Positions 7,647 through 60,300 of a stretch of DNA of 64,000 nt are shown here, one piece after another. Where the stretch lies: positions 40 through 64,039 of the forward strand of contig JAUPTX010000002.1 of NCBI GenBank assembly GCA_030917865.1, written 5' to 3'. The number at the start of each line of letters is the position of its first letter. Within the stretch, counting starts at the first letter, position 1. The notes beneath the pieces are model-generated. The model ran no database searches, was not told the origin of the DNA, and was given only the letters and a program-made list of their open reading frames with translations. Source of the DNA: Patescibacteria group bacterium. Lineage in GTDB: Bacteria > Patescibacteriota > Minisyncoccia > Phycocordibacterales > CSBR16-119. The position numbers and the translations under genes were made by a program.

Positions 7647-7752
7647 AAATATTTATAAATACGCTAAATCCCCCTCCGGATGACCTTTGGGGTTTACAGG
7701 AAGACTATACCACACTTTATAAAGATAATTAATAGGCAATATTTTTCCACAT

Positions 7753-7781
7753 TTGACAATATCACAGCTTCAGGCTATGAT
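7753..7781 (+). promoter_or_regulatory. near-consensus sigma70-type promoter (-35 TTGACA, 17-nt spacer, -10 TATGAT) driving the small GC-rich ORF pair
   Basis: TTGACA at 7753-7758 and TATGAT at 7776-7781. Shares the context tTTGACAAt with four other cassette promoters in this window. Confidence 0.5.
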
Positions 7782-7847
7782 ACCAATCCGCCACAAACGG
7801 CAAGTTCTTTCAATAGACCGATCACAAACAAAAACCTTAAACACTGA

Positions 7848-8024
7848 ATGCACCTAACATTGGACTTCTTGAACGGATCACTTGGCTTACTAGCAATAGT
7901 GGCTGTGATCCTAGCGATGTGGGCAATCACACCTAGCGACAAAAAGCGAAGTGCGCGGATTGCCGAATTCAAACGAGTAGCACTCAGGGCACGAATTGGT
8001 TTCTACAACATCATTTCACGATGA
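7848..8024 (+). CDS. hypothetical small membrane peptide (58 aa); not in the supplied ORF track (under 60 aa)
   Basis: Manual translation gives MHLTLDFLNGSLGLLAIVAVILAMWAITPSDKKRSARIAEFKRVALRARIGFYNIISR*. One hydrophobic helix. Lies in a visibly GC-rich patch. The stop codon overlaps the next start (ATGA). Confidence 0.35.
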   Translation: MHLTLDFLNGSLGLLAIVAVILAMWAITPSDKKRSARIAEFKRVALRARIGFYNIISR

Positions 8025-8170
8025 AAGCAGAGCTGATTCTAACCATAGTACTACTCGTAGTCGGAACCATTGCATGCTTGGCATACAAGTATACCTTGTG
8101 CAACCCGATGAAGTGGAGGAGGAAGGTTGTTCACTGGAACAACAAACTCTTCAAGGAAAAGGCTGCGTAA
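8021..8170 (+). CDS. hypothetical small membrane peptide (49 aa), translationally coupled to the upstream ORF
   Basis: Manual translation gives MKAELILTIVLLVVGTIACLAYKYTLCNPMKWRRKVVHWNNKLFKEKAA*. A hydrophobic helix followed by a basic tail. A 4-nt ATGA overlap couples it to the previous ORF. Confidence 0.35.
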   Translation: MKAELILTIVLLVVGTIACLAYKYTLCNPMKWRRKVVHWNNKLFKEKAA

Positions 8171-8249
8171 CCAATCGACGCAGTGGAAAAGTTTGTGTGA
8201 TCCTCACTGGAGGAAGCACGAGTCTTACACCAAAGTGCAAGATCGCGAA

Positions 8250-8283
8250 GGCCGTCACGGGAGTGACGGCCTTCATTATTTTT
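8250..8283 (+). terminator. intrinsic terminator (GGCCGTCAC-GGGA-GTGACGGCC + TTCATTATTTTT)
   Basis: Perfect 9-bp GC-rich stem followed by a T-rich tract, closing the small-ORF cassette. The tail overlaps the uvrB stop on the other strand. Confidence 0.7.
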
Positions 8284-10306: not shown

Positions 10307-10334
10307 GTTCGGATTATAACCTTAATTTAAAAAC

Positions 10335-10362
10335 TTGACAATATTTTAAACTTATTATAAAT
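10335..10362 (+). promoter_or_regulatory. sigma70-type promoter (-35 TTGACA, 15-nt spacer, -10 TATAAAT) for the 77-aa GC-rich ORF
   Basis: TTGACA at 10335-10340 and TATAAAT at 10356-10362. Same cTTGACAAt context as the 7753 promoter. Confidence 0.4.
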
Positions 10363-10380
10363 TATAAAAAACAAAATTCC

Positions 10381-10614
10381 ATGGCACAAGAAAAGAAGGA
10401 GCCCACAATGCTCGAAAAGTGTGGAATACTTTTCATTGCCTATAGTGTTGGCGAAAATCTGCCAACACCTAGGACGCTCAACAAGATCATCGGCGAGCTC
10501 GAAGCGGTGAGCGGTCTCACATCAGAAGAGATCCGACAGGTTTATCGCTACGTACAAGAAGAGGCATTCAAGATGTATCTTCCCAAAGAACGTAGAGGTG
10601 TCGGATTCAAGTAA
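10381..10614 (+). CDS. hypothetical small protein (77 aa), GC-rich cassette
   Basis: Complete ORF (MAQEKKEPTMLEKCGILFIAYSVGENLPTPRTLNKIIGELEAV...) bracketed by the promoter above and a GC-hairpin terminator. No family recognised. Confidence 0.4.
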   Translation: MAQEKKEPTMLEKCGILFIAYSVGENLPTPRTLNKIIGELEAVSGLTSEEIRQVYRYVQEEAFKMYLPKERRGVGFK

Positions 10615-10637
10615 GATGGTTCCCTGACACCACACCA

Positions 10638-10668
10638 AGAGCCCCGCATCGCAGGGCTCTCTTTTTTA
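10638..10668 (+). terminator. intrinsic terminator (AGAGCCC-CGCATCGCA-GGGCTCT + CTTTTTTAC)
   Basis: Seen directly. Confidence 0.6.
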
Positions 10669-10711
10669 CAAATACATCTCTTTTACTTTCTCTTCGAGTT
10701 TTTACCCTGAT

Positions 10712-11941
10712 TTATTTTATAGAGTACCCTTTTATAAACTCCTCCTTAAACTCGAAAAATTTATCCTCCAAAATCGCTTCGCGGATTTTGTGAACTAGGT
10801 TTACGATAAAATAAACATTGTGAACTGAAGCTAAAGTGTTAGCCAAAATTTCTTTTGCATGAAAAAGATGCGCCAAATACGCTTTCGTATAATTTTGACA
10901 AGTGTAACACTGGCAACCCTCTTCTATCGGCGAAAAGTCTGCTCTGTATGCAGCGTTTGTAATATGTATTGGTCCGTTTTTTGTATACAAAGATCCGTTA
11001 CGAGCAACACGTGTCGGAGCTACACAATCGAAAAGATCGCATCCATTTTCAACTCCCAAAAACACATCTATCGGGTCTCCGATACCGAGGAGATGCCTCG
11101 GCTTTTCTTCTGGCAGAGATTCATTCACCCACGCCACCGCTGTGCCCATATCGTCTTTGTCAAAAGATCCACCGATTCCAAATCCGTCGAACATGCTTCC
11201 GTTTTCTGTTTTCATTTCCGCTAAAGCTTTCGCAGACTCTTTTCGTAAATCTTCATGTCGTCCACCCTGAACCACCCCAAAAAGAGCCTGGATGTTTTCA
11301 GGATCTAATTTTTCATGAGCAACCAAACTTCTCATCGCCCATCTGTGAGTTCTGTCCATCGCTTCTTTTTGATACTCATGTGTTGCTTGCGGGCTCGTGC
11401 ATTCGTCGAATGCGAAAATCATATCAGCACCTAAATCCCACTGCACTTGCATCGAAGACTCTGGTGTAAATCTGTGCTGGTCGCCGTTTATGTGCGAACG
11501 AAAAGTCACACCATCTTCATCTATTTTTGCTAATTTATTTTTGTTTCCAGTTCCACCATCTTCTACCTTTTTTCTATTTTCATCTCCTGCTTTTGCAACC
11601 TTACTCACATGTTCACCGAAAGCGGCGCCCAATGAAAAAACCTGAAAACCTCCAGAGTCTGTCATTGTCGGACCTTGCCAACCCATGAATTTAGCGAAAC
11701 CTCCCGCCTTTTTTACAAGTTCATTTCCTGGCTGAAGATACAGGTGATATGTATTCGCCAGTACAACTTGTGCACCGAGACTTTTAAGCATTTCTGGCGT
11801 CATCGCTTTTACCGTGGCCTTGGTTCCCACTACAACAAAAGAAGGCGTATTGATTTCGCCGTTTGGAGTAGTTATTTTCCCTGCTCGCCCGAGTTTACCC
11901 GGAAGCTTTTTTTCAATTTTAAAATTAAAATTTTCTGACAT
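10712..11941 (-). CDS. tgt: queuine tRNA-ribosyltransferase (tRNA-guanine transglycosylase)
   Basis: N-terminus GRAGKITTPNGEINTPSFVVVGTKATVKAMTPEM...LANTYHLYLQPG and the zinc site CQCYTCQNYTKAYLAHL. Contains a roughly 40-aa insertion (GDENRKKVEDGGTGNKNKLAKIDEDG). Confidence 0.9.
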   Translation of the reverse strand: MSENFNFKIEKKLPGKLGRAGKITTPNGEINTPSFVVVGTKATVKAMTPEMLKSLGAQVVLANTYHLYLQPGNELVKKAGGFAKFMGWQGPTMTDSGGFQVFSLGAAFGEHVSKVAKAGDENRKKVEDGGTGNKNKLAKIDEDGVTFRSHINGDQHRFTPESSMQVQWDLGADMIFAFDECTSPQATHEYQKEAMDRTHRWAMRSLVAHEKLDPENIQALFGVVQGGRHEDLRKESAKALAEMKTENGSMFDGFGIGGSFDKDDMGTAVAWVNESLPEEKPRHLLGIGDPIDVFLGVENGCDLFDCVAPTRVARNGSLYTKNGPIHITNAAYRADFSPIEEGCQCYTCQNYTKAYLAHLFHAKEILANTLASVHNVYFIVNLVHKIREAILEDKFFEFKEEFIKGYSIK

Positions 11942-12424
11942 TTAAAAATCTTTTATTATAATCTCCGGTAAATCTTTTTTTGAAACTTGTATATACATTA
12001 CTGGTTCAATTTCTTCATAAGACACGGATTCATTGAAATTTATTTCTTTAAAATTTTCTTTTTCAAAAACATATACATAACCAAAAGCATCGTCTCCTAT
12101 TTGATCCATTGTTTCTTTTGTAGCACGAAATTCAAAACTTCCATTATTATTAGAAGAAAAACCGGTTCTCGATTCAAATGGTGCATTTTTTCCATTCATT
12201 ACCGCCATAAATATTGCCGTTTTAGCAAAAGGAGAAGTAAAAACCGCCGGCTCACCATCTGGGATTTTTTCATACTCGCCATTATCTTTTTTTATATGAT
12301 TAAAGGCTTGTCTTGGTTCAAATTTATTAATCTTAAAAGGCGAACCATGAAAAACATATCTTCCTGTTTTTTCAAGATTTTCTAAAATTTGTTTTGGTGT
12401 TTTTTCAAAATTTATATTTTCCAT
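11942..12424 (-). CDS. hypothetical protein (160 aa, soluble) between mreC and tgt
   Basis: Complete ORF tightly packed between mreC and tgt. No recognisable motif. Not MreD-like (not hydrophobic). Confidence 0.5.
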   Translation of the reverse strand: MENINFEKTPKQILENLEKTGRYVFHGSPFKINKFEPRQAFNHIKKDNGEYEKIPDGEPAVFTSPFAKTAIFMAVMNGKNAPFESRTGFSSNNNGSFEFRATKETMDQIGDDAFGYVYVFEKENFKEINFNESVSYEEIEPVMYIQVSKKDLPEIIIKDF

Positions 12425-12426
12425 TT

Positions 12427-15479: not shown

Positions 15480-15480
15480 C

Positions 15481-15600
15481 CGGTTAGAGGCAGGTCACGG
15501 TCACCCGATTTTCTGCCATAGGTTAATTTATAATAAAACTTTAATTTTCTAATTCCAGTTTAGAGTTTATATTTTAGTGACCGCGGCCTCTAACGGGATT
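15481..15600 (-). promoter_or_regulatory. long imperfect inverted repeat in the proS leader whose downstream arm abuts the start codon (possible regulatory structure)
   Basis: Arms CCCGTTAGAGGC-CGCGGTCAC and GTGACCG-TGACCT-GCCTCTAACCGG separated by about 75 nt of AT-rich loop. The downstream arm ends 0 nt from the proS ATG. Confidence 0.3.
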
Positions 15601-15643
15601 CATAAGGCTTATAATACTTTAAAATTCCTTTTTTTGCTATATT

Positions 15644-15672
15644 TGACAAAACACTATTTATATGATAATATA
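15644..15672 (+). promoter_or_regulatory. sigma70-type promoter (-35 TTGACA, 17-nt spacer, -10 TAATAT) for the 77-aa ORF at 15700
   Basis: TTGACA at 15644-15649 and TAATAT at 15667-15672, in the context aTTTGACAAa. Confidence 0.4.
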
Positions 15673-15699
15673 TAGAAGAACCTGAACAAATTAGAAACA

Positions 15700-15933
15700 A
15701 TGAGCTACTACTCCTTCATCTTTCGCATTCAGTACCTGTCTGCCCAAAAAGTGGTCATGACTGAGTTTACGTCCAACACCTTAAAATCAATTGATTGCTC
15801 AACGCTATCACATCTAAGAGATATGATAGCCTTGGAGCTTGGATCAACTGAGAAAAGGGCGTCAGCCAGTCAAAGAATTGGAAAAATGGTTGACAAGGTG
15901 GAGGTTGATCTGGTCAGCCACTGCAAGATCTGA
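15700..15933 (+). CDS. hypothetical small protein (77 aa), GC-richer cassette inside the 680-bp proS-rpsB gap
   Basis: Complete ORF MSYYSFIFRIQYLSAQKVVMTEF... with its own promoter and terminator. No family recognised. Confidence 0.35.
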   Translation: MSYYSFIFRIQYLSAQKVVMTEFTSNTLKSIDCSTLSHLRDMIALELGSTEKRASASQRIGKMVDKVEVDLVSHCKI

Positions 15934-15953
15934 ACATGTGAACCATTGAAGTA

Positions 15954-15986
15954 GACCTCGGCCAAGCGCTGGGGTCTTCTTTTTTA
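15954..15986 (+). terminator. intrinsic terminator (GC hairpin ending GGGGTCTTCTTTTTT)
   Basis: GACC..GGTC stem with a CCAAGCGCTGG core, followed by TCTTCTTTTTT. Confidence 0.5.
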
Positions 15987-16161
15987 CCCCTTGAAAAAAA
16001 CCTCATTTTGTAGTAAAGTATCGTTTGTCTGTAAGTAATCCGCCTTGGTCAAAAACCCCGGCAGATGCCCTCCCTAGTCAGGAGCGGTCAAACGAAAGCA
16101 ATTAAAATAACAAAGCTTTTGTGCAGATATAGAGCCTAAATTACAGGGTAAATTACAAATT

Positions 16162-16833: not shown

Positions 16834-16841
16834 CTTTAAAT

Positions 16842-16871: not shown

Positions 16872-16907
16872 ATTTCAAACATTAAAAATAGTTCATTTAT
16901 TTTATTT

Positions 16908-17675: not shown

Positions 17676-17678
17676 TTT

Positions 17679-34327: not shown

Positions 34328-34510
34328 ATGGTCGAGGGCGCAGGCAAAGCCTGCGCCCAAGTTGGCAAATGAGTGACAGATGTAGCCTATTTTCGATGGA
34401 AAAATCGATTAGGCTTTCCTTGGTGGAACTTCGTAGGAAATCCGCGCCTTCCGCGAGCTCTCGCTCCGCCCCCGGCACGTGTGTGTCTGGTTCCACTTTG
34501 ACCACGTTTA
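34328..34510. other. GC-rich, stop-codon-rich, apparently non-coding structured element (candidate small RNA or 5' leader of rnr); class not identified
   Basis: About 180 nt with far higher GC than the flanks. Perfect hairpin GGGCGCAGGC-AAA-GCCTGCGCCC (34335-34359). Nested hairpin AGCCTATTTTCGAT-GGAAAA-ATCGATTAGGCT (34385-34416). Long-range pairing GTGGAAC...GTTCCAC. No convincing ORF. Confidence 0.4.
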
Positions 34511-34583
34511 CTCATGAAGATCTGGATTTGTTTTAATTCTATCAGACTAATAAATCGCGTCCAAATATGCTAAGCTATAATTA

Positions 34584-41390: not shown

Positions 41391-41460
41391 GTTTAATAAT
41401 AGTATTTTAACATAGAATTTTTAATTCAAGATATGTTTATATTACTTTTTATTTACAAAA

Positions 41461-41540
41461 GCCCGGCGCCTTTGGCGCCGGCCCTAAAACCGCAAAAATA
41501 AAATAGGTCGATATATCGACCTATTTTATTTTTAAATTTT
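41461..41540. terminator. two tandem palindromic terminators downstream of rnc (CCGGCGCC-TTT-GGCGCCGG and AGGTCGATATATCGACCT with T/A-run flanks)
   Basis: Seen directly at 41461-41484 and 41504-41522. Confidence 0.6.
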
Positions 41541-41580
41541 TAGCTTATGTTCTACATTCTACGATTCACAATCTACATCT

Positions 41581-45346: not shown

Positions 45347-45408
45347 ATATAGGGCGCCTTCGGCGCCCTATATTTTATTTAAAAGCCCTACCAACTGGTA
45401 GGGCTTTT
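45347..45408. terminator. two adjacent GC hairpin terminators (TATAGGGCGCC-TTCG-GGCGCCCTATA + T-run for thrS; AAAAGCCCTACCA-ACTG-GTAGGGCTTTT, bidirectional, for the murD fragment)
   Basis: Seen directly at 45348-45380 and 45381-45408. Confidence 0.7.
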
Positions 45409-45954
45409 GCACGCAAGACGCGCCACAGAACTTCTGAACTCCCGAGATCTATGCTCATAGTTCGTAAAAAGGTCAAAACTTGCACACGCTGGAGAAAGCA
45501 GAACTGTATACCCGGGCTGAGCAAGCTGCATTGCAGACATAACAGCTTCGTCCATTAAAAGACAGTCCGAGGTAACGGGAACGTCTTGAGAGAAAAAATT
45601 CCTCAGACGATCGTTTACCCTGCCCAAGGCAACGATTGCTTTTACCTTCTTTTCGACAGCAGACAGAAGCACCGAATAGTTATTTCCCTTATCGACGCCG
45701 CCAGCAATCCAAATTATTGGACCACCAGTTTCTTCTAGTGCCCACCAAGCAGAATTCACATTGGTTGAAAAAGAATCATCTACAAAACTGATACCTTCGA
45801 ATAGCCCAACTTTTAGCAGACGATAGTCGAGGACCGGACGAAAACCTTCTCGTATTTCGTCTTTAGTTGGAGAAATTCTACCCTCAATACCAACACCCTC
45901 TCTCTTGTGCCCAGCAATGTTTCCGTTTACTGCGATCTCTATTATGTGTCTCAT
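45388..45954 (-). pseudogene. murD: GC-rich gene fragment matching only the C-terminal domain of UDP-N-acetylmuramoylalanine--D-glutamate ligase (MurD); truncated remnant or captured fragment
   Basis: VDDSFSTNVNSAWWALEE...IIWIAGGVDKGNNYSVL...LSPACASFDLFTNYEHRSREF aligns to the MurD C-terminal domain. The ATP-binding and N-terminal domains are absent (188 aa versus about 440). GC is visibly higher than in neighbouring genes. Confidence 0.55.
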
Positions 45955-46031
45955 GGTGCTGTAATTTGCATATATTATACAACGAAAAAGCCTTGTAATA
46001 GCAAGGCTTTTTCAGAACAACATATTTAATT

Positions 46032-48168: not shown

Positions 48169-48197
48169 TTGACAAATTAATATAAAATATGTATACT
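48169..48197 (+). promoter_or_regulatory. sigma70-type promoter (-35 TTGACA, 17-nt spacer, -10 TATACT) for the 168-aa secreted ORF
   Basis: TTGACA at 48169-48174 and TATACT at 48192-48197, in the context tTTGACAAa. Confidence 0.45.
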
Positions 48198-48224
48198 TAC
48201 GAGCGAACCAACACAAACAAATAG

Positions 48225-48731
48225 ATGAAAAAACTGATCCTTCTCGCCATCTTTTTCCTGGGCATGATCGCCCAAGAAACATTCGGCCAAACCCGATACG
48301 GATGGGCAAACCCCATACCTGACAGTATGACGTGGAACTTGGACCAGTCGGTCAAAGAGGACTTTATCCTCTCCCCTCCAAGCGGCCAAGGTGACATACC
48401 CTTAGAATCGAGTATCTGGCAGAAACCAGAGAAAGACAAGATGACCGTAAAGATCGTGGCTGTAAGGCCCGCCGATCTCGGATTCGGACTTGGTTACGAC
48501 CACTCCGAATTCATCCTGGCCGCCAAAAAGCTCGGATACCTGCATTGCCCCGAATGGGTCCCAATCCAGGCGTACATGAGCTTTGGAAGGAGCAAGGGTC
48601 ACATCTTCTTCTACACAGGAGAAGCGAAGAAGTACTGGTGCTTTGGCCTATACGGCTACAAAAGCCAAGACCTTTGGAAAAGGACCCTGGACGGCAGACC
48701 TGATTCCATATGGATATTCGTACGAGAGTAA
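48225..48731 (+). CDS. hypothetical secreted protein (168 aa, N-terminal signal peptide), GC-rich cassette
   Basis: MKKLILLAIFFLGMIAQETFGQ signal peptide. The body is rich in aromatic residues and glycine. GC is roughly 50% by eye. A chance ORF of this length at that GC is improbable. Confidence 0.55.
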   Translation: MKKLILLAIFFLGMIAQETFGQTRYGWANPIPDSMTWNLDQSVKEDFILSPPSGQGDIPLESSIWQKPEKDKMTVKIVAVRPADLGFGLGYDHSEFILAAKKLGYLHCPEWVPIQAYMSFGRSKGHIFFYTGEAKKYWCFGLYGYKSQDLWKRTLDGRPDSIWIFVRE

Positions 48732-48744
48732 CAACTCTGGTACA

Positions 48745-48783
48745 AAAACCCCTGAAGCGAAAGCTTCAGGGGTTTCTTGTTTA
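48745..48783. terminator. bidirectional intrinsic terminator (AAAACCCCTGAAGC-GAAA-GCTTCAGGGGTTT + CTTGTTT)
   Basis: Perfect 13-bp stem between the convergent 168-aa ORF and pheT. Confidence 0.7.
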
Positions 48784-50595
48784 TCTTATTTCAAATCCTT
48801 TATCTTTTAATTTTGTGTAAATTTCTTCCATTATCGGAGCAACTTCTTCGTCTGTTAGAGTTTTTTCATGCGACTGAAATACAAGTCTGTAAGCATATGA
48901 AGTCTTGTAATCTTTTTGATACACATCGACAAGTCTCGGCTCTCTTGCTAAAAGATTCGCATCTTTTAAAACTTCTTCTATTTCTTTTTTATCAATCTCG
49001 TTTGGTATCAAAACAGCAATATCTCTTGTGATAAAAGGAAAAGAAGACCATTGTGTAAACTTTTTATTTTCTTTAATCTCATTTTCTGCAAATTTATAAG
49101 AAGAAAAATCTATGTTATTTTCTTTTACAAATTCGTCTAGTGACATTTCTGTCACACCTTTTTTATCCACCAAGGCAATATTTAAAACTTCGGAATCTTC
49201 TGTCGTAAAAACATTTCCGATTTCAAAAAGTTTTACATCATCAAGCCCCAAAACCCCAGCGTTTAATTTATTTATTTCATAAGACTCTTTTATTCCATCA
49301 GAAATATTTGTTCGGAGGTTTGATTTCCCTTTTGGACCACGAGCAACCTCGACCTTACCCTTTTTACCGAAAGTATATGTCATCGTCTCGCTATAGCCTT
49401 CATTTAACAGTTTCAAACGTACGGCAAAAATCTTTGCAAAAGTTTCGTTTATTTTTGGTTTTACAGAAATTTCTGGCATTACTGGCGCAACTTTTTCATA
49501 ACCAATAGTTCTACCAATTTCTTCTACTAAATCTTGCATCATATTTAGATCAAGTCTTTCTCCAGGAACAAAGATTTGGAAAATACCGTTTGTCTCACTG
49601 TAATCAAATCCAAGGGAAAGAACTGCTGTGGTTATCGTCGCGACGTCAAAGTCTACTCCCAAAACCCTGTTTATATCTTTCTGAGATACGACTATTTTTC
49701 TTTTTTCTTGCCACTTTTCTTTTGATTCATAAACGTCGACAATATCTTCAAAAGTTGCATCTGGAAACATTTCAAAAATCAAAGAAGAAAGTTCTGTCAT
49801 ACCGAGCGTCGCGTATTCTGGAGACAAATCATTTTCAAATCTTTTTGTAGAGTCTGTAAGTATGCCAAGTCTTCGTGCTGTCTTTCGCACAGATGAAGGC
49901 GCAAAGTTTGCAACTTCTATAACGATATCTTTTGTATTTTCATCAACTTCGGCTTTTGTTCCGCCTTTTACACCAGCAATAGCGAGAGCGCCTTCTTCAT
50001 CTGCAATAACTAAATCGGTTTCTAAAAGCTCTTTCTCTTCTCCGCCCAAGATTTGTATTTCTTCACCCATCTGAGCATTTCTAATATAGATTGTTTTATT
50101 GTCGGCAATTTTATCATAATCAAAAGCATGCGTTGGCTGACCAACGTTAAACATTACGATATTTGTCGCGTCGACAATATTGTTTATACTTCGCTGCCCA
50201 ATTGATTCTAAGTGCGTTACCATCCACTCTTTAGAAGGTCCGACTTTTACCCCGCGAATAATTCGCGCAGAGTATCTTCGGCAAGCACCTCCTTCTATGT
50301 TTATTTTTAATTCTGTTGGAGCGGATTCAGGAATTTTATATGAGAGTGTCGGATCAACAAAAGGAATATTTAAAAGCCCAGAAAGTTCTTTTGCCACACC
50401 TCTGTGTGAAAGCAAATCGTGCGCTCTGTTTGGCAAAATATTTATATCAAAAATAGTATCTTCTTTTCCATCTTTACCAATAAAAGTTTCTACACCTTCA
50501 ACTTCAGTTAAATGGTATGTGAAAACATCTGCCAATTTTTCAGCAGTCGGAATTTCTGGTATATACCACTTTAGCCAGTTGTAAGATATTTTCAT
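48781..50595 (-). CDS. pheT: phenylalanyl-tRNA synthetase beta subunit (short form, 604 aa)
   Basis: MKISYNWLKWYIP N-terminus, B3/B4 and B5 regions, and a C-terminal catalytic-like domain. Confidence 0.85.
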   Translation of the reverse strand: MKISYNWLKWYIPEIPTAEKLADVFTYHLTEVEGVETFIGKDGKEDTIFDINILPNRAHDLLSHRGVAKELSGLLNIPFVDPTLSYKIPESAPTELKINIEGGACRRYSARIIRGVKVGPSKEWMVTHLESIGQRSINNIVDATNIVMFNVGQPTHAFDYDKIADNKTIYIRNAQMGEEIQILGGEEKELLETDLVIADEEGALAIAGVKGGTKAEVDENTKDIVIEVANFAPSSVRKTARRLGILTDSTKRFENDLSPEYATLGMTELSSLIFEMFPDATFEDIVDVYESKEKWQEKRKIVVSQKDINRVLGVDFDVATITTAVLSLGFDYSETNGIFQIFVPGERLDLNMMQDLVEEIGRTIGYEKVAPVMPEISVKPKINETFAKIFAVRLKLLNEGYSETMTYTFGKKGKVEVARGPKGKSNLRTNISDGIKESYEINKLNAGVLGLDDVKLFEIGNVFTTEDSEVLNIALVDKKGVTEMSLDEFVKENNIDFSSYKFAENEIKENKKFTQWSSFPFITRDIAVLIPNEIDKKEIEEVLKDANLLAREPRLVDVYQKDYKTSYAYRLVFQSHEKTLTDEEVAPIMEEIYTKLKDKGFEIR

Positions 50596-51230
50596 GAGTT
50601 AATTTTATTATATTCTGCTTTATACTCCTCAATATAACGGGAAAACATTTCATTTTTTTGAGAATTAAGTACCTTTAATTTTTCTTCTCTTAACTGTGGA
50701 TCTAATTCTTTCTTATAAAGATCATCTACTTGTGATAAATATATTAGGTTTTGAAATTTAATTTTATTCCAAAGATTATTGTACTCTAACTCCACTAAAA
50801 TATCCTTTGTTTTAGATAAATCAACTACGGTAGAACCCTTATAAAAAATTTTATAAATTTTATTTTGAGTAGAACCAAGCATAGGTAAGCTTATAACCGA
50901 ATTATATGCAGCATGTCTAATCTTATGAACTACTAAAAAATTATTTTCTCTTGATAGATTCATGCAGTATTTGTCTGCATTAGATAAAACGTCATAATCG
51001 TATGTTTTCCCTTCAATATCTGAAAATATTTCTTTTTCTATTAATTTTTTATCTTTATCTAAAATGAAATCTTGTTCATCAAAATCACTTATTTTATCTG
51101 ACAACTCACAAATATACGCAATAAAAACATCGGTCACATTATTAACTATGTATACAGAACTCTCAAACCATTCTTGCTTTTGTCTAAGAAGTGTCCACCT
51201 TTTTTCTTCAAAAATAGATTTACTACTCAT
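50592..51230 (-). CDS. hypothetical AT-rich protein (212 aa) inserted between pheS and pheT
   Basis: Complete ORF starting 3 nt after the pheS stop; its stop overlaps the pheT start by 4 nt. Very AT-rich. No recognised motif. Confidence 0.55.
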   Translation of the reverse strand: MSSKSIFEEKRWTLLRQKQEWFESSVYIVNNVTDVFIAYICELSDKISDFDEQDFILDKDKKLIEKEIFSDIEGKTYDYDVLSNADKYCMNLSRENNFLVVHKIRHAAYNSVISLPMLGSTQNKIYKIFYKGSTVVDLSKTKDILVELEYNNLWNKIKFQNLIYLSQVDDLYKKELDPQLREEKLKVLNSQKNEMFSRYIEEYKAEYNKINS

Positions 51231-51233
51231 AAA

Positions 51234-51929: not shown

Positions 51930-52067
51930 TCCTCAAATATAACAGATTTAACACTGTTTTAAAAGGCATATAAACTTTGACAAACCACATTTTTTTTATT
52001 GGATTTTAAAAACTATAACACTTTAACTTCTAGAATAAATATCGTTTAAAAAATATTTATTAAACAA

Positions 52068-55000
52068 CTATTTTACTTCTGAATCTGTTATCACATAGGG
52101 CTTACATTTTTGTAATCTTATTGTAGCACTACCCTCGTTATTGTTTTGATTTGCATCTGATTGATCGAGATAATGCAGGACGGCAATATTAGTCCTATTT
52201 CCACAAACCTTTGGTGAATTAGGAACTTTCATTGTTATAAATATATGCGTTTGCTGATTAGGAAAAAGTGTTGGAATGTAAAACATATGAACATTGTTGT
52301 TGTATGCGTTCGTGTTAGGTGTTTGATGAGAGTGATATATCAATCCTGGTGGAATTATTTCTTTAACTTGAACATTTGTAGCAGTATTATCTCCTAAATT
52401 TTTTACATCTATCCTCCAAGTTATATATCTATCAAATAAAGAGAGTGATGAATCAACCAACTCTTTTGCAACCCTTATATCTACTTTTCCATCAGTATTA
52501 ACTGGTGGAGTGTCTCCAACCAAAGCAACACCGAAATCTAAGTTTTCTACTGTTTCTCCGTCTTCTAGCGTGACTGTATACATATGGTTGTAATTTATAA
52601 ATGGATCAGTACTTATTCCCGGCTGTGTCACCGATTGATACAAATTTTCACCTATTAAACCGACGTAATACTCTCCGTCTGGAAGGTTTGTGAATTCGTA
52701 TCTACCGAGGTTTGGAATGTCTTCCGTAGTTGTGGTTTGGATTGGCATGTTGTTACCAGCTTGGAAAAGACCCACCGGAATACCTGCAAGGCGTAGCTCG
52801 GTCGATTGTTGAGAGCCGTTTTGGTTTTGGTCTTGATAAATATATCCATGAATAGAAGAAGTTCCTGCTTTTTTTAAACTTACACCATCAATATAAAACA
52901 TAGAGCTTACAAAAATATTACTCGTGTCAGAAATAAATTCGGGATCAAAAGCAATATAATTATACTCTATTCCATTATCTGGAATAGAAAAGTCTAAAAA
53001 GTATTCTTGCCATAAACCTATATTAGGATGTGAATATGAGTTAAGGTTTACAGGTACAGAAAATAACAAATCTGTCTGATTTGACACAAAAGATTCTTGA
53101 AAAGAAGGACTTGATAAAGGCTCTGCTGAAATATAAATTTTTTGATTGACATTAGATATCCCACCACCTCTTAGATATACACCGCGCCAAACCAATCGAT
53201 AACTACCAGGAAGAATGGGCTCTAAAGTCTTTGTTTGAATACTTTCAACATAAGTAGGCAAGCCAATATAATTACCAGGAACAAAAGAATTGGTCCCGCC
53301 AATATATCTGTTATTTGGAATACCATTATATGTTTCTTGAGGCCCAGAATTAGTCCAAGGAAAATCAAAATTTAAATCTCTAGTATATATATCAGTAGAT
53401 GGTCTAAAGTTACACCAACCAAGAAAATCACTTGGGCATAAAAAAGATAACTGACCTGCTCCATTTCCAGCACCCGGCAAATCTCCGATTTCAAAATTTC
53501 CATTACAAATATATTCATCGGGGTCATTAATACTTTCACAAGATGCTGCAGTCTTTATTAAAGCAGTAAATGAAAATCTGTTTGTATTTGAATTCTTGTT
53601 TGTATACCTAAAAACTCTAGTAGAAGTATCGATGGTTGGAATAATGTTTACAGACACAGAACCTGATGAATTTGATTGAATAGATCCAGTACAATTTGAT
53701 CCTGAGAAATACTGTATTACATCTCCAGGATCTGAAGCAACAACCTCAAAAATGTTAATCTTAAGCTGATTAACAGACCCCCCGGGATTAATATCATTAT
53801 CTAGTAAATTAACACACACTGGCTCTGTTCCATTAAACTGAATAAAATCATTCGTTGCTACCGGACTCGGCACTTCACACCCAGCCAATCCCTCCACCAT
53901 ATATCCCAAATGACACAAAACTTCTAGTTCATGTTCGTGGATATCTCTTTCTGTATTTGTTCCAATTGATGGATGCATTACATAAGTCTGTCCTGGGGCG
54001 CGATTCATGTCAAAGTGCGAAAGAGACGAGCCCTGTTGCCAGCTTGTTGGACTGTAAACAGGGCGAACGCCATCCGGAGCAGCGTTTAAAATATTTTTAA
54101 CACCACGGTAAACAACCTGGTTTGTTACAAACCAAGGAGAAGGGGCTCCGACTGGGACGTTTAATAGGTTTGTGACAGCGGTGATAAATCTGTTTTGAAG
54201 ACTTTCATCTTTGTGTGTGTAGTAGTCAAATGTTCCATGATTATAGGAAATATTGGTTTCATTTATAACCGAAGGCAAAAGACCTCTTAAACCAAGTGCA
54301 TGCATCATCTCATGCCACATAACGGTATAGAAGTCATAAGTATTCGCGTTAAGACTTGAATCAACGCTCCAGTTAATACCATTAAAATTTATTATTATGA
54401 AAGCGTCAAAAGACCCTTGTGCTGGGGTTGGGTTTTGTCTTGAGATGATATGTTTGTGAAGAGAGCCGTTGTCAGGGTTAGCAGAGTAATAGCCCAAATA
54501 TGAAGACGCCCCAGCTAGAGCTCCTGGTGGTAAGGGCTGGTCACTTCTTGTAAAAAGAATATCTGAGGTTACGGTAGTCGTATCTATCATTAGAATCTCT
54601 GACATATCTTCTAGAACCTGACAAGCTTCTTCTCTTCTACCATCTCCATATGTAGGGTCATCAAAACCAACGTTAGTGTTTAGTGCCACATCTTCAAAGT
54701 AGGCTTTGAAGTATCCCGTGACAGATGTATTTGCTCTACAGTTATATACTCCTGGATTACTTGTATCTTCATCGTATGCAACTACTTTTTTTGTTTTTAG
54801 GGAATCCAAGAAAGATTGTTTTCTTGGTTCTTCTTTTTTCATGAAAGCGTTTTCTTTTACCGGGTAACCCCAGGCGTCACGAATTGGTCCAAAGTCAACA
54901 TACTCTAATCCATATTCTTGTTTTAGGATAGCTCTTGCTTTTTCTTCGTCAAAAGGAAGTATCGGTAGGTCAAAGTTTGCCTCTTTTTTGTTTACTGGAA

Positions 55001-55217
55001 GCTTTGAGTATTGATATTGGAAATTAAATACTCCTGGAAATTCTTTTGAAGGAGAGATGTTATAGATGTTTTCACTTATTTGCCCAATCAAAGAAGCTTG
55101 GGCCGAATTTTCTATCTGAAGAATACTTGGAATAACAAGCCCTTGCATAGTAAAAAAAGTAAGAAACAAAATTCCCACAGAAATAATAAAATTTATTGAA
55201 GGTTTATATTTTTTCAT
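52068..55217 (-). CDS. large secreted/surface protein (1049 aa): signal peptide, HExxH zinc-metalloprotease-like region, SdrD-B/CnaB-type domain and C-terminal DUF11 repeat domain
   Basis: N-terminal hydrophobic signal. YTVMWHEMMHALGL (HExxH). A second HEHELE motif. GYIYQDQNQNGSQQSTE...GRYEFTNLPDGEYYV (SdrD B-like). VDIRVAKE...WRIDVKNLGDNTATNVQVKEIIPPGL (DUF11-like). Confidence 0.7.
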   Translation of the reverse strand: MKKYKPSINFIISVGILFLTFFTMQGLVIPSILQIENSAQASLIGQISENIYNISPSKEFPGVFNFQYQYSKLPVNKKEANFDLPILPFDEEKARAILKQEYGLEYVDFGPIRDAWGYPVKENAFMKKEEPRKQSFLDSLKTKKVVAYDEDTSNPGVYNCRANTSVTGYFKAYFEDVALNTNVGFDDPTYGDGRREEACQVLEDMSEILMIDTTTVTSDILFTRSDQPLPPGALAGASSYLGYYSANPDNGSLHKHIISRQNPTPAQGSFDAFIIINFNGINWSVDSSLNANTYDFYTVMWHEMMHALGLRGLLPSVINETNISYNHGTFDYYTHKDESLQNRFITAVTNLLNVPVGAPSPWFVTNQVVYRGVKNILNAAPDGVRPVYSPTSWQQGSSLSHFDMNRAPGQTYVMHPSIGTNTERDIHEHELEVLCHLGYMVEGLAGCEVPSPVATNDFIQFNGTEPVCVNLLDNDINPGGSVNQLKINIFEVVASDPGDVIQYFSGSNCTGSIQSNSSGSVSVNIIPTIDTSTRVFRYTNKNSNTNRFSFTALIKTAASCESINDPDEYICNGNFEIGDLPGAGNGAGQLSFLCPSDFLGWCNFRPSTDIYTRDLNFDFPWTNSGPQETYNGIPNNRYIGGTNSFVPGNYIGLPTYVESIQTKTLEPILPGSYRLVWRGVYLRGGGISNVNQKIYISAEPLSSPSFQESFVSNQTDLLFSVPVNLNSYSHPNIGLWQEYFLDFSIPDNGIEYNYIAFDPEFISDTSNIFVSSMFYIDGVSLKKAGTSSIHGYIYQDQNQNGSQQSTELRLAGIPVGLFQAGNNMPIQTTTTEDIPNLGRYEFTNLPDGEYYVGLIGENLYQSVTQPGISTDPFINYNHMYTVTLEDGETVENLDFGVALVGDTPPVNTDGKVDIRVAKELVDSSLSLFDRYITWRIDVKNLGDNTATNVQVKEIIPPGLIYHSHQTPNTNAYNNNVHMFYIPTLFPNQQTHIFITMKVPNSPKVCGNRTNIAVLHYLDQSDANQNNNEGSATIRLQKCKPYVITDSEVK

Positions 55218-55269
55218 ACCCCTCCATTATAGCAAAATATAATTCGTATCGATATTTTAAACAACCTTT

Positions 55270-56313: not shown

Positions 56314-56356
56314 AAGATATTTAGATATTAAAACTTTTTTAGGTTTTTAGGAAGGG

Positions 56357-56385
56357 TTGACAAAAATACAATAAAGATGTAATTT
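56357..56385 (+). promoter_or_regulatory. sigma70-type promoter (-35 TTGACA, 17-nt spacer, -10 TAATTT) for the 155-aa GC-rich ORF
   Basis: TTGACA at 56357-56362, in the context gGTTGACAAa. Confidence 0.35.
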
Positions 56386-56419
56386 AACGTTTGAAAGAAC
56401 AAACCTTAAACTCAATAGA

Positions 56420-56887
56420 ATGAGAACAATTGAAACACAAGTGCCAAACTGGCAAGGAGTACCAGCTGTTGGAATGGGGAAACTCATCTTCAACGATGTC
56501 ACGTACATATACTGTGTACTAGATACACGATTGTTAATGAAGCTCGCCACCATCTGCAAAGACGGCATACTGGCGGTAAGTATGGACTACCCAGGCGAAT
56601 ATCGCGAGCTAGCACTGATTCACGAACTCATTGAGTTCTCATCTTGGCAAGAAAAAGACCGAAAAAGAGTCTGCTCCTGCCAAAGTGCACTTCAACAAGA
56701 ATTAAGTATGGCCCAAAATCGTGGAATCGATATGGGTGAATACATAAAGCTTAGGCTTGAATTCTTTGAGGGTGTTGTGAGTTATTACGAAGGAAGGACA
56801 GGTAGCGGAGAAGCCACGGAAGAGGAGTGGGAGATCTTTGAGCACGTTGCACAAAGCCGAGACCATCTGAAAAGCCTGGTCCAATAA
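56420..56887 (+). CDS. hypothetical protein (155 aa), GC-rich cassette
   Basis: Complete ORF followed by a perfect terminator. No recognised family. GC roughly 47% by eye. Confidence 0.5.
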   Translation: MRTIETQVPNWQGVPAVGMGKLIFNDVTYIYCVLDTRLLMKLATICKDGILAVSMDYPGEYRELALIHELIEFSSWQEKDRKRVCSCQSALQQELSMAQNRGIDMGEYIKLRLEFFEGVVSYYEGRTGSGEATEEEWEIFEHVAQSRDHLKSLVQ

Positions 56888-56906
56888 CCAAGGACCATTC
56901 CACCAA

Positions 56907-56950
56907 AGCCCTGCCGGGCATTAACCGGCAGGGCTTCTTCTTTTAAAAAA
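56907..56950 (+). terminator. intrinsic terminator (AGCCCTGCCGG-GCATTAA-CCGGCAGGGCT + TCTTCTTTT)
   Basis: Perfect 11-bp stem and T-tail. Confidence 0.75.
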
Positions 56951-56983
56951 AATATTGTAATATGGCCAAAAACGCAGCACAAA

Positions 56984-57334
56984 ATGTTCCACAAACTTCA
57001 CCTCATACACCCAGGAGAACTTCATGGTGAAAACCACGCAGGAAATTATCATTACAACTTCTTCGCACAGAACAGAGATCAAATACCGAAAGGTATAGTT
57101 ATAGACCGCGTATTCCCCGGATTAAGCCTTATCTTTTTTGGAGATCGCGTGGAGAGAAACGGCAACATCTACGCCCCTGGACTTTATCGCGCCAAAGGAC
57201 TTATCTACTGTTCCTTCGCTGACCCAAGCGGATGGGAGGAATATTGGGTCTGTCTAGATGAAGAAGGAGCACCCGTGGTGAAGTACGGAGGACAGGATCT
57301 TTCCATGTACTACCGATACGTGGTGAAGAAGTGA
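56984..57334 (+). CDS. hypothetical protein (116 aa), GC-rich cassette
   Basis: Complete ORF (MFHKLHLIHPGELHGENHAGNYHYNFF...) with its own terminator. Rich in Tyr, Gly and His. No family recognised. Confidence 0.45.
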   Translation: MFHKLHLIHPGELHGENHAGNYHYNFFAQNRDQIPKGIVIDRVFPGLSLIFFGDRVERNGNIYAPGLYRAKGLIYCSFADPSGWEEYWVCLDEEGAPVVKYGGQDLSMYYRYVVKK

Positions 57335-57348
57335 CGAAGATGTCACGA

Positions 57349-57389
57349 AGCCCCGCAGCCGAAGGCTGCGGGGCTTCTTCTTTTTTATA
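57349..57389. terminator. bidirectional intrinsic terminator (GCCCCGCAGCC-GAA-GGCTGCGGGGC + TTCTTCTTTTTT), shared with the convergent helicase gene
   Basis: Perfect 11-bp stem. The tail is near-identical to the 56907 terminator (GGGCTTCTTCTTTT). Confidence 0.75.
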
Positions 57390-60300
57390 TCCTATTTTTT
57401 ATCTCTTCTACCAGCTCACAATATTTTTCATTTCCCTCGCCCATATCTTTTGGATCACAGGGTGTATCCCAAAATTTTAAGTTCAATATTTCATCCGACA
57501 CACGGATTATCTCTGACTTTAGATTTTCCACCTCCTCATCTGTTGGGGCAAATGTGTGTTTTGTAAATTTACCTTTTTCGTCTGGCTCAACGAATTCCAA
57601 AGATCCTTCGTCCATCACAAACTTTCCATCAGCATAAAGCGAAAGAAGAAGTTTATAGAAAACTATTTGCCTATAGTATGCACCATCAGAATCTTTCGTC
57701 TCTCCGCGCACGAATTTTTCTGATTTTGGCTTTCCTGTTTTATAGTCCACCACTCGCACGTGCCTCTCGCTTCCGTCTATAAACTCCAGCTTATCCAACT
57801 TACCAGTTAAACGAATCTCTGAATTTATATAAACCCCATTTATAGGAAGCTCAACCAAGGCATGTTTGTGTAATTTGCCCTTATTTTCTTCATACCACGC
57901 GTCGAGAGTTTTATATCCCTTGTCGAGCAAATCTTCTCTTTCGCTATCTCGAAGAGTTTCGCCAGAAAGTCTTTCTTCAAATTTTTGAAATAAAAATTCT
58001 TTGCCAGGTTCTTCGTATTTCAAGCTTTCAAAAAAAGCCTGAAGAACAGCATGGATCACGGTTCCATAAATCTGACTTCTGTTTTGTGGTTCTGGTAGCC
58101 GGACCAAATTGCGGTAGAAATAACGCCAAGGAGATTTTAGATAATTGTTTAAAGCTGTCACCGAAAGACCTTGAGACAAAAACTTTTCTCTGACGAAATC
58201 TTTGTATTTTTCTTTGTAATCTTCTTTTGTTGGCTTTACTATTTTTTCTTTAAATAAAATTTCTTTTTCTTTAGAAAAATTTTGCACAAAATTATCAGGA
58301 GAAACTATCTCGATAAAATCTGTATCTATCTCGCCGACAAACTGACTCGGCACACGCTCTCGCCCATCAGAAGAAAAAGATCCGTATGAAATATGTATTT
58401 CTTTTTTCGCACGAGTAAGCGCAACATAAAAAAGTCTTCTTTCTTCGTTGTCATTTTCTCCCGAAGAAGATTCGTCAAAATAATCAAAATCATTTTCTTT
58501 TTTATCTTTTATCAAAGAATAAACCGAAGGAAGAAGTTTTAATATTTCTCTTTTAGATTTGTTGCCCCAGTGCCCGTCGTACGCACCAACGATATAAACA
58601 TTTTCAAACTCAAGACCTTTTGATTTATGTGCAGTCATAAGTCTAACCGCGTCGCCTAAAGGTTTCGCTTTTCTTTTAATAGAAAGTCCGTGTTTTTCTA
58701 TGATGTCTAAATATTCACAAAAATCAGAAAGTCTAGCTGAAGGATTTGTTTTTTCTAAATCCCTTGCTTCTTCAAAAAAAGTGTTGATTACTTCGACTTT
58801 TTCAGGGTTTTCTGAAAGAGCTGTTGTTAAAAGTCCTGACTGCCTTAATATCTTTTCTAAACACTCTACAAGTTCTTCGTTTTTAGACGAGCTCACCCAA
58901 CCGGATAAATTCGCATAAGTTTCTAAAAATGATTCTTTGTTTTCTAGAGGCATTTTATCTAGCATTTTTTCCTTATTTGAAATTATGTCGTATAAGTCAA
59001 ATTTTTTCTTATCTTTTGCACTACGAACAACTCGAATTAAATCGATCGGAGAAATTTTGAACAAATCAAGATGAAGCATTTCAGCCAAAACGTCGTCGTC
59101 GCCAAAATTATTTACCGCTTTGATTATTTTAATAAACTTTCTGATATAAGAGTCACGTAAAATATCCTGATCAGATTCTATAACATAAGGGATCCCAAAA
59201 CGTGCCAACATATCCGCCACAGGAAACGCGTCACCATTATTTCTGTATAAAACAGCACAAGAAGACGCACCATTTCCCTCTTTTATTTTTTCTTGTATTG
59301 AAGAAGCGACGAAATAATATTCACTGGCATCGTCTGGAAAAGTGTAGAAATGTATTTTCTTTTCTTTTTCTTTTATATTTGCAGAAAGCTTTTCTCGTCC
59401 CGCCAAAAGACTGTGTGCCGAGTCTAAAATAGTCTGGGTTGAACGATAATTTTCTGTAAGAGTTATAAGTTTAGCTTCTGGATAAAGATGCTTAAAGTAG
59501 AAAAAGTTTTCTAAAGAAGCACCTTGGAATTTAAAGATTGATTGCTTTTTGTCTCCCACAACAAACAAGTTTGGGCTCTCGTGGAAATTCGCCAAGAGCT
59601 CAAGTATTTTATTTTGAGCATTGTTTGTATCTTGATGCTCGTCAACCAAAATATATTGATGATTTTCTTGGAGACGTAAAAGCAAATCAGAGTCTTCTTT
59701 TAGCATCTTCAAAACCTCCATTATCATATCGTTGTAGTCGTAATATTTTTTCTCTACGAGTTTTTCTTCATATTTTCTATAAACCAAAGCAAGTTCTCTA
59801 TTTTTCTCGATTCGTTTTTTCAAATCTTGATATTCATTTTTAATCTTGCCTTTATAGCGACCTTTTTCGTGATAAAGATCAGAAATTTCTTCAAAATCTC
59901 TTTGCGCCAAGAAAACAATATTATCAAAATCTTCAGGCAAAACTCCCTCTCTTTTTAAATCACTTATCGCAGAATTTATGGCTTTTGTGTAATACAAAGT
60001 ATCGCCAAAAGGTTTAAGCAAGCTTAATTTAGTCTCAATTATAATTTCTTCAATTAGAGAAATTTGAATGCTTTCTGTGATATTTTTAGCGCCAATAATT
60101 CTCGGGAAATTTTCTGGATTGTCGCGAATCACATCGTTTGCAAATCCGTGAAAAGTTTTAATCACAACAGAATACGCCGCAGATCCGATAAAATCTGTTA
60201 ATCTTTTACGCATATTAGAAACTCCAGACTCGGTGAAAGTCAGAGCCAAGATGTTTTCTGGGGCGGTGTCTGTTTGTCTTAGAATATTTGCAATACGAAG

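Follow-up and report, generated by a model that had tools for sequence, protein, structure and literature searches.

Small genes with their own predicted promoters and terminators in fixed gaps between housekeeping operons of a Patescibacteria chromosome

Morons of the HK97/HK022 type are phage genes that carry their own promoter and terminator, deviate in composition from their surroundings and constitute extra DNA in comparison with related phages (Cumby, Davidson & Maxwell 2012; PMC3594210). Composite terminator/early-promoter motifs, termed PeSL, have been described for the hyperplastic regions of T4-like phages (Comeau, Arbiol & Krisch 2014; PMC4122927). Units reminiscent of both are found in a stretch of 64,000 nucleotides (the window) from a metagenome-assembled genome (MAG) of a Patescibacteria group bacterium (assembly GCA_030917865.1, contig JAUPTX010000002.1, positions 40 to 64,039 of the forward strand; proteins MDQ59013xx and locus tags QG580_* at the National Center for Biotechnology Information, NCBI). 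GC-rich units designated c1 to c7 lie there in gaps between housekeeping operons, each encoding one or two small proteins. It is considered probable that these gaps constitute fixed slots for autonomous, insulated expression modules of accessory small proteins, the composition of which is maintained.

Like morons, the units are predicted to be transcribed independently, stand between conserved genes, deviate in composition, in some cases vary in presence and absence among close relatives, and often encode small membrane or secreted proteins. Unlike morons, they are flanked by chromosomal housekeeping operons, and no phage homologues were found; most units are old, syntenic and vertically inherited, and their composition has been kept over saturated synonymous divergence. 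PeSL-bearing regions share with the slots small variable open reading frames (ORFs) between a stem-loop terminator and a promoter, tandem composites, breakpoints at the modules, and collinear core genes. In contrast to the phage motifs, the units described here reside in a Paceibacteria chromosome, the modules have little in common from slot to slot except the functional consensus, no cassette family was seen in more than one slot, and recombination at the motifs is only conjectural. Integron cassettes are likewise short, contain one ORF each and follow one another head to tail at a fixed chromosomal location; their content is variable, and each ORF is followed by a hairpin-forming sequence. 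However, here each unit brings its own promoter, its hairpin is a perfect GC stem running into a T tail (an intrinsic terminator) and not an imperfect attC site, many dispersed slots take the place of one array, and neither an integrase nor attI was seen in a search made without a formal attC model. Unlike miniature inverted-repeat transposable elements (MITEs) and insertion sequences (IS), the c3 and c5 junctions show no terminal inverted repeats or target-site duplications. Orphan genes in flexible islets are comparable in being fast-evolving, taxonomically restricted small genes at recurrent positions among core genes, with strain-variable content. As a rule, orphan or newly acquired genes of bacteria have a higher AT content than the genome that carries them, whereas the units of the window are richer in GC and especially in C at third codon positions (GC3, C3), have a uniform expression architecture and show an excess of mRNA folding. 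A limited literature search found no description of such an organisation in Patescibacteria.

Layout, position and turnover of the units

Five units, c1 to c5, possess the layout that the initial annotation had proposed: TTGACAA, a −10 hexamer at a spacing of 17 nt, a short ORF and, behind it, a GC hairpin that runs into a T tail (Table 1). A near-consensus promoter had been claimed for all units, but c6 and c7 have a −10-like hexamer only, without a TTGACA −35 element; in c6 this hexamer (TAATAT, 56958-56963) follows the c5 terminator. Likewise, c2 to c7 contain the expected single ORF, whereas c1 is a two-gene unit, in which the c1a stop and the c1b start overlap in ATGA; to judge from this overlap, c1a and c1b are translationally coupled. 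The heptamer TTGACAA occurs 12 times in the window, below the 20 occurrences expected. The complete motif TTGACA-N16-18-TAnnnT occurs six times (2.8 ± 1.6 expected), and all six matches fall within the 11% of the window that lies outside host genes (P ~2e-6), five of them at c1 to c5 and one upstream of rpoB. The −35 heptamer of c2 (10335-10341) reads TTGTCAA on the reverse strand, where TATAAT stands behind a 17-nt spacer, and is apparently the shared −35 of back-to-back c2 and uvrB promoters. Leaders between promoter and ORF measure 11-66 nt and contain ~50% A, ~30% C and ~10% each of G and U, without a Shine–Dalgarno sequence. This absence does not set the units apart, since a Shine–Dalgarno duplex is detectable in only ~21% of host genes. 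Host genes, which according to the initial annotation mostly lack such textbook promoters, do have promoters, mostly as −10 boxes shortly upstream of the ATG, and TTGACAA promoters serve ordinary genes too, such as rpoB in the window and peptidase M3 in the related loci L021 and L022. At many host genes, TATAAT stands about 5-12 nt upstream of the ATG without a Shine–Dalgarno sequence (e.g., 60436-60460, 63446-63470, 55218-55240, 10307-10320), a distance that suggests widespread leaderless or very-short-leader mRNAs.

A GC hairpin with a T tail is predicted 3′ of each unit, in keeping with the initial annotation, and three places in the window, no more, carry the tail GGG(G)(T)CTTCTT(C)TTTT, namely c3, c5 and c6. 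Ordinary host operons end in equally strong GC hairpins, so the terminator is no mark of the units.

The genes flanking the units—uvrA/B/C, tgt, proS, rpsB, gyrB, pheST and uvrD—are cellular housekeeping genes. Nine of the 16 gaps of at least 90 bp in the window carry a small-ORF unit and three carry tRNAs. Relatives were represented by the contigs L001, L012/L014/L020 (one sample), L013, L015, L018/L019, L025, L053 and L055, the housekeeping genes of which are collinear with those of the window. The closest, L001, is ~90% identical to it in DNA. The nearest matches of the UvrD helicase, at 73-81% identity, come from MAGs that bear the label Candidatus Paceibacterota or the automatically assigned name 'uncultured Candidatus Saccharibacteria'; UvrD of Zambryskibacteria follows at 55%.

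Table 1. Positions in the window of the unit genes and of the signals predicted around them
Feature	Position	Strand	Remarks
x4762 ORF	4762..4983	+	73 aa, single-pass membrane protein gene in uvrC-uvrA gap; GC3 0.43; promoter-like TTTACT-16-TATCAT at 4714-4741
c1 unit	7753-8283		full architecture
c1 promoter	7753..7781	+	TTGACA-17-TATGAT, 11/12 consensus positions; then 66-nt A/C-rich leader 7782-7847
c1a ORF	7848-8024	+	58 aa, predicted single-pass membrane protein
c1b ORF	8021-8170	+	49 aa, predicted single-pass membrane protein
c1 terminator	8246..8283	+	predicted intrinsic; 12-13-bp GC stem, T-rich tail
c2 unit	10335-10668		full architecture
c2 promoter	10335..10363	+	TTGACA-17-TAAATT
c2 ORF	10381..10614	+	77 aa, orphan; alternative start 10408 with AAGGAG upstream gives the NCBI-annotated 68-aa product
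c2 terminator	10638..10668	+	~90% identical to L012, above neighbouring coding DNA
c3 unit	15643-15986		full architecture
c3 promoter	15643..15671	+	TTGACA-17-TAATAT, TG upstream of −10
c3 ORF	15700..15933	+	77 aa, orphan, putative coding status
c3 terminator	15953..15986	+	tail GGGGTCTTCTTTTTT
x34514 ORF	34387..34515	-	42 aa, Arg/Gly-rich, MSKRGQSGTRHTRAGGGARARGRRGFPTKFHQGKPNRFFHRK; upstream of rpsP; candidate additional unit
c7 terminator	~45373-45400		bidirectional
c7 ORF	45388..45954	-	188 aa, MurD C-terminal domain (Pfam Mur_ligase_C)
c7 −10	45974-45979	-	TATAAT
c4 unit	48169-48783		full architecture
c4 promoter	48169..48197	+	TTGACA-17-TATACT, 11/12 consensus, then leader cgaaccaacacaaacaaatag; region 96% identical to L001
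c4 ORF	48225..48731	+	168 aa, predicted N-terminal signal peptide
c4 terminator	48746..48783	+	
c5 unit	56357-56945		full architecture
UPF0176-UvrD slot promoter	56357..56385	+	TTGACA-17-TAATTT; kept in L001, L013, L018 and L020, there ahead of different ORFs
c5 ORF	56420..56887	+	155 aa, N-terminal beta-sheet and helical bundle; invariant H-E-L-x-E and C-S-C
c5 terminator	56905..56945	+	tail GGGCTTCTTCTTTT
c6 ORF	56984..57334	+	116 aa
c6 terminator	57345..57389	+	tail GGGGCTTCTTCTTTTTT
x60491 ORF	60491..60730	+	79 aa, UvrD-peptidase M3 gap; TATAAT 60466-60471, A/C-rich leader; GC3 0.34, host range

Orthologues of c1, c4, c5, c6 and c7 occupy the same slots in related Paceibacteria. The gyrB-pheT slot holds c4-family genes in every relative examined (L001, L014, L015, L018, L025, L053, L055), with distant members adjoining gyrB being detected at profile E-values of 1e-17 to 1e-22. 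A single c4-family gene is present in the window, L001, L015, L053 and L055; L014 and L025 have two ORFs, one in each being detectably c4-like, and L018 has three, two of them detectably so. No copy lacks a TTGACAA promoter and a hairpin of its own; all leaders are A/C-rich (often gaaccaacaca) and all products bear a signal peptide. In the L014 and L018 arrays, a hairpin with its T tail is followed by the next TTGACAA within ~5-10 nt. In L014, the ORF in tandem after the c4 orthologue (7364-7792) encodes 142 aa with a signal peptide and is the most extreme of all observed in both GC3 (0.69) and folding (synonymous-permutation z −7.7).

In other slots, the signals persist and the contents change. 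The UPF0176-UvrD slot keeps its promoter and the terminator core GCCCTGCCGG...CCGGCGGGGC, which in the window belongs to c5 and recurs behind unrelated ORFs in L013, L018, L020 and L025. At least five unrelated ORFs occur in this slot across relatives: c5 and c6 in the window, c6 only in L001, c5 only in L018, a 56-aa membrane ORF in L013, a 77-aa ORF plus c6 in L020, and a 79-aa ORF in L025. The indel that accounts for the missing c5 in L001 begins directly after TTGACAA. The c3 unit (~15641-15986) is absent from L012 by a clean indel of ~345 bp, one end of which lies shortly before TTGACAA and the other exactly where the T tail stops. At the c2 position, L012 retains the promoter, the leader and ATG-GCA-CA, as well as the terminator and 3′ flank (~90%), and between them carries an unrelated 103-aa Cys-rich, zinc-ribbon-like ORF. 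All three events thus have their breakpoints at the motifs, as in PeSL-type exchange. Terminator cores are common to a slot across genomes and partly also to different slots, e.g., GCCCGCAGC...GCTGCGGGC; the same cassette family was never found in two different slots among the loci compared.

Further units of this kind had escaped the initial annotation. The gene x4762 is one of them, with a milder composition; its L012 orthologue shares 48% aa identity, compared with 85-97% for the flanks. Another is x60491 in the UvrD-peptidase M3 gap. In the candidate x34514, TG stands before a TAGAAT −10, the leader is A/C-rich, a GC hairpin is present and the local GC content is ~0.5; its region has no Rfam match, and a mechanical ORF list gives a 67-aa GTG ORF in another frame at 34387-34515.

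Coding status, composition and mRNA folding

Judged by their conservation, most unit ORFs are real genes, and c1, c4, c5, c6 and c7 are conserved under purifying selection. The ratio of nonsynonymous to synonymous substitution rates (dN/dS) is 0.10-0.32 for the unit ORFs overall and, in comparison with L001, 0.13 for c4 and 0.32 for c6. The suspicion that ORFs without relatives might be spurious is met by orthologues for these five units, but not for c2 and c3, for which no homologues were found in the local loci of relatives or in two metagenome scans. Under a codon model for which verified cassettes had served as training set, the annotated frame outscores the other five in every unit, though only weakly in c3 (score ~0). 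The unit proteins evolve 5-20 times faster than the flanking genes; in comparison with more distant relatives, their dN amounts to 0.27-0.57 versus 0.02-0.12 for flanks. In L012, the c1a/c1b pair is recognizable at 38-46% aa identity (GC3 0.55-0.77), the DNA being no longer alignable.

Most of the protein families could not be recognized, as initially stated, the exception being the MurD C-terminal domain of c7, the only match of the unit proteins in Pfam, PHROGs, PADLOC and NCBIfam; weak PycTM, Atthog and phrog_25496 matches to transmembrane helices are noise. The c4 family is small and clade-restricted, and its members form tandem arrays adjoining gyrB in relatives: a profile search of 1.84 billion representatives retrieved 22 proteins only, nearly all of 160-200 aa. 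Searches of 5.8 billion proteins with c4, c5 and c6 gave 4-7 clusters each, and the alignments contain many invariant Cys, Trp, Gly and Pro columns. The products of c5, c6 and c7 appear cytosolic.

The reading of c7 as a murD fragment could not be upheld. It matches positions 304-439 of the 441 in TIGR01087 (E = 7e-39) at 134 bits, below the cut-off of 212. A full-length three-domain MurD ligase is excluded, because only these last 136 positions match and the score stays below that cut-off. An orthologue in L014 shares 57% identity with a dN/dS of 0.16. On the strength of a C-terminal match below the full-length cut-off together with this conservation, c7 is a stand-alone Mur-ligase C-terminal-domain protein and not a decaying fragment. 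At its position L001 has only an unrelated AT-rich gene, which in L014 stands beside the c7 orthologue.

The composition of the units is clearly atypical. Their ORFs have a GC content of 0.44-0.51, close to what had been estimated by eye, but the background was underestimated at 33%: the whole window has 36.6% GC, and 44 host genes average 36.2% (0.362). GC3 is 0.40-0.64 in the units versus 0.289 ± 0.065 in host genes, a shift that runs chiefly from T to C (host to units: T3 0.35 to 0.17, C3 0.14 to 0.32). The proposed comparison of codon usage bears this out, the log-likelihood z of the units against host genes ranging from −3.0 to −6.5. In a comparison with length-matched random host chunks (5000 samples), c1b, c3 and c4 lay at or above the maximum; c5 (0.455) exceeded the 99.9th percentile of the nearest sampled size class (168 codons, 0.444); c2 and c6 fell just below the 99.9th percentile, and c1a inside the host range. 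Translational selection of the usual kind is unlikely as the cause of the C3 enrichment, since genes for ribosomal proteins, EF-Ts and RNA polymerase (rpsB, rpsP, tsf, rpmF, rpoB/C) have a GC3 of 0.25-0.29, without the bias of the units.

Orthologues and paralogues of c4 have a GC3 of 0.42-0.69 against a local background of 0.27-0.32, even where the dS of flanks is ~1 or more, as it is between the window and the L012/L014 genome, i.e., where synonymous sites are saturated. The dS of c4 and c6 in comparison with L001 is 0.34, like or slightly below the 0.36-0.64 of flanks. Because GC3 remains high in orthologues at saturated synonymous sites, and in view of synteny, flank-like dS and the lack of foreign homologues, the atypical composition is maintained and not the fading trace of a foreign origin.

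One property that could be maintained in this way is the folding of the mRNA, which was analysed for 22 genes including related orthologues, equivalent to ~12 independent families. Against permutation of synonymous codons, the predicted folding of unit coding sequences (CDSs) has a mean z of −2.07, negative in 21/22, compared with −0.56 for host segments, −0.71 for small host genes taken in full length and −0.12 for host segments of equal GC content (~0.455); neither GC content nor small size can therefore account for the excess. Dinucleotide shuffles give a mean z of −2.6 for unit CDSs versus −0.37 for host segments (Mann–Whitney P = 5e-5). Long internal inverted repeats are also excluded as a source, none being present besides the terminators. 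Around the start codons of units, the predicted unpaired probability is 0.47-0.84, as opposed to 0.32-0.42 inside the CDS. Since the CDSs fold more than their own synonymous permutations and the leaders are predicted to be unpaired, synonymous sites are probably under selection for a folded, long-lived mRNA body behind an open initiation region. In agreement with this, c4, c6 and x60491 have a dS slightly below that of their flanks.

Candidate explanations

In the explanation favoured here, a full module would consist of a strong sigma-70-type promoter (−35 TTGACAA and −10), an unpaired leader rich in A and C and poor in G and U, a small folded ORF and an intrinsic terminator. Modules would be mostly monocistronic, and since most of them point against the flanking operons, they would be insulated from these. 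The products would be accessory small proteins limited to this clade, with signal peptides in c4 and its paralogues and single-pass membrane topology in c1a, c1b and x4762. The genes would be mostly vertically inherited, while slot contents would change as ORFs are inserted, deleted or replaced, the breakpoints lying within or beside promoter and terminator modules. As the likeliest cause of the composition, selection would favour stable, long-lived, still efficiently initiated mRNA. What the sequences show is the anatomy of the units, their outlying composition, their conservation under purifying selection, the synteny of the slots, the indels and swaps, and the excess of predicted folding. 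From these features we infer that the promoters and terminators are active, that expression is high, that selection acts on mRNA stability, and that the proteins serve at the surface or in interactions.

Several observations weigh against this explanation. Promoters, terminators and mRNA folding are all predictions. For c2 and c3, which lack homologues, the coding status is only putative and recent acquisition is possible. Protein searches reveal no function for the unit products beyond the MurD C-terminal domain of c7. The shift in composition is asymmetric between the strands, with C exceeding G and A exceeding T, which is not what selection for base pairing alone predicts. In addition, x4762 and x60491 share the layout with little or no GC3 excess, so the link between architecture and composition is not strict. 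Finally, the excess of folding is modest for some genes (c6 −0.6, c7 0.05), and the independent families number only ~12.

A more ambitious version, in which the slots form a genome-wide plug-in system with resident promoter, leader and terminator, ORFs being swapped by recombination at these modules, mRNAs being selected for folding and the products possibly having an episymbiotic role, is conceivable but doubtful. It would make the slots a chromosomal equivalent of PeSL or moron shuffling in phages, and their fast-evolving secreted, membrane and cytosolic proteins an expression class of their own.

Recent import of moron-like genes from a GC-richer donor—a phage, a plasmid or a GC-rich member of the Paceibacteria—with their own promoter and terminator and a composition that has not yet drifted towards that of the host, is considered unlikely. 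The atypical composition, the clean c3 and c5 indels between close relatives and the orphan status of c2 and c3 are all as this explanation would have them; other Paceibacteria with a GC3 of 0.5-0.65 likewise use TTGACAA promoters, and the features match the moron definition (PMC3594210). It is, however, contradicted for c1, c4, c5, c6 and c7 by their synteny across the clade, and the dS of c4 and c6, equal to or below that of flanks, as well as the GC3 that stays high in orthologues with saturated dS, speak against it. Even distant c4-family members adjoin gyrB in AT-rich genomes. Relatives among viruses were found neither by sequence nor by fold: three scans of viral contigs returned only chance matches of 20 residues inside tail-fibre or structural genes, PHROGs gave no significant match for unit proteins, and a Foldseek search of BFVD with c5 had no match at E below 0.1. 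No homologues in foreign genomic contexts were found, those detected being limited to this clade. Phage genes were not seen, an integrase is absent from the Pfam families listed for genes of related loci, and an inverted-repeat scan yielded terminators only. The initial annotation had preferred lateral, moron-like acquisition and offered as its alternative a lineage-specific family of highly expressed small proteins. Architecture, composition and the c3/c5 indels agree with the former, but recent acquisition in general does not fit the synteny, the flank-like dS and the maintained GC3. The latter fits better, the units being lineage-specific and independent, although they comprise several unrelated families plus the orphans c2 and c3 instead of a single family.

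Alternatively, promoter and terminator modules might act as portable short homologies through which ORFs are shuffled in the manner of PeSL, this being the main driver, with GC enrichment arising by GC-biased gene conversion. Such shuffling would explain why the breakpoints of the c2 swap and of the c3 and c5 indels lie in or beside promoter and terminator, why terminators with the same core stand behind unrelated ORFs of the UvrD slot, and why tandem arrays contain terminator-TTGACAA composites with few nucleotides in between, and it has a precedent in the phage motifs (PMC4122927). Nevertheless, homologous cassettes were never seen in two different slots, and the likeness of modules between slots is limited to the functional consensus of roughly 7-12 nt. 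Gene conversion should moreover lift G3 and C3 equally, whereas the shift is mostly from T to C, and a conserved terminator could be a mere resident while the ORFs upstream of it are deleted or diverge. As the main driver, shuffling is thus judged improbable.

That some units, chiefly c2 and c3, are structured non-coding or dual-function RNAs with incidental ORFs is very unlikely. Their transcripts do fold far below shuffled controls (z −3.3 for c2, −2.3 for c3), neither has a protein homologue, the codon-model score of c3 is ~0, and the protein collection lacks the exact c3 and c1a sequences, suggesting that these escaped gene calling in every pipeline. Yet no Rfam family was matched even at permissive thresholds: Rfam 15 (gathering and permissive thresholds) together with ARAGORN gave the three tRNAs, found at the gathering threshold, plus a chance match to a palindromic terminator. 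The annotated frame scores best for every unit, c2 contains an internal AAGGAG-ATG start, and coding is clear for c1, c4, c5 and c6, the sister units, which have a dN/dS <1, a signal peptide or transmembrane segment, and conservation confined to the protein.

An assembly or binning artefact, by which GC-richer foreign fragments would have been joined chimerically into the AT-rich contig, can practically be dismissed, since the abrupt change of composition at unit edges in a window derived from a MAG is outweighed by identical junctions in independent NCBI, JGI, ENA and Logan assemblies—c4 with both flanks occurs in at least nine contigs—and by the synteny of the slots in many relatives.

Neighbouring variable genes and wider meaning

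The gaps and operons of the window hold further variable genes. Two very AT-rich genes without a Pfam match are found inside otherwise conserved operons, at 50592-51230 (- strand, pheT/pheS) and 11942-12424 (- strand, tgt/mreC), with GC contents of 0.26 and 0.29; the former is absent from L001 and the latter from L012, and L018 has a nucleoside deoxyribosyltransferase-like gene at the pheT/pheS position. These genes are a second class of variable genes, distinct from the GC-rich units. Extra AT-rich genes that the window lacks occur in the c1 and c2 slots of L012 (9058-9324 and 5987-6605), namely a GIY-YIG gene of 88 aa, a 94-aa ORF and a DUF1653 gene of 105 aa, so the slots gather both GC-rich and AT-rich small genes. 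The gap 41391-41580 contains two strong hairpins and no ORF; L001 has an 86-aa HTH_3 gene there (3187-3447, + strand). In the gap 51930-52067, a TTGACAA promoter (51977-51983, + strand) is kept with L001, where it precedes a plus-strand gene of 652 aa; in the window it faces the 3′ end of a convergent gene for a 1049-aa DUF11/SdrD-like surface protein (52068-55217, - strand), which takes the place of the plus-strand gene of 652-673 aa in L001, L018 and L020. Upstream of proS, the gene for prolyl-tRNA synthetase, a leader of ~160 nt (15480-15640, - strand) is highly conserved with L012 and contains the long invariant block GTGACCGCGGCCTCTAACGGGATTCATAAGGCTTATAATAC; it has no Rfam match, and its conservation suggests a regulatory leader RNA.

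Patescibacteria have tiny genomes, in which unplaced small hypothetical proteins account for a large part of the genes. In this one clade of Paceibacteria, many of these genes would form a recognisable class, marked by a common expression architecture, a fixed position between operons, fast evolution, turnover among strains, maintained atypical codons and an excess of mRNA folding. These marks may be used to pick out, from sequence alone, those accessory genes of uncultivated episymbionts for which high expression and a part in interactions are likely. The units also run counter to the rule by which genes of atypical composition are taken for recent imports, and provide a testable case in which selection on mRNA structure would shape codon usage. 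If the modules do mediate the exchange of ORFs, a mechanism hitherto described for the genomes of phages would also apply to the chromosome of a bacterium.

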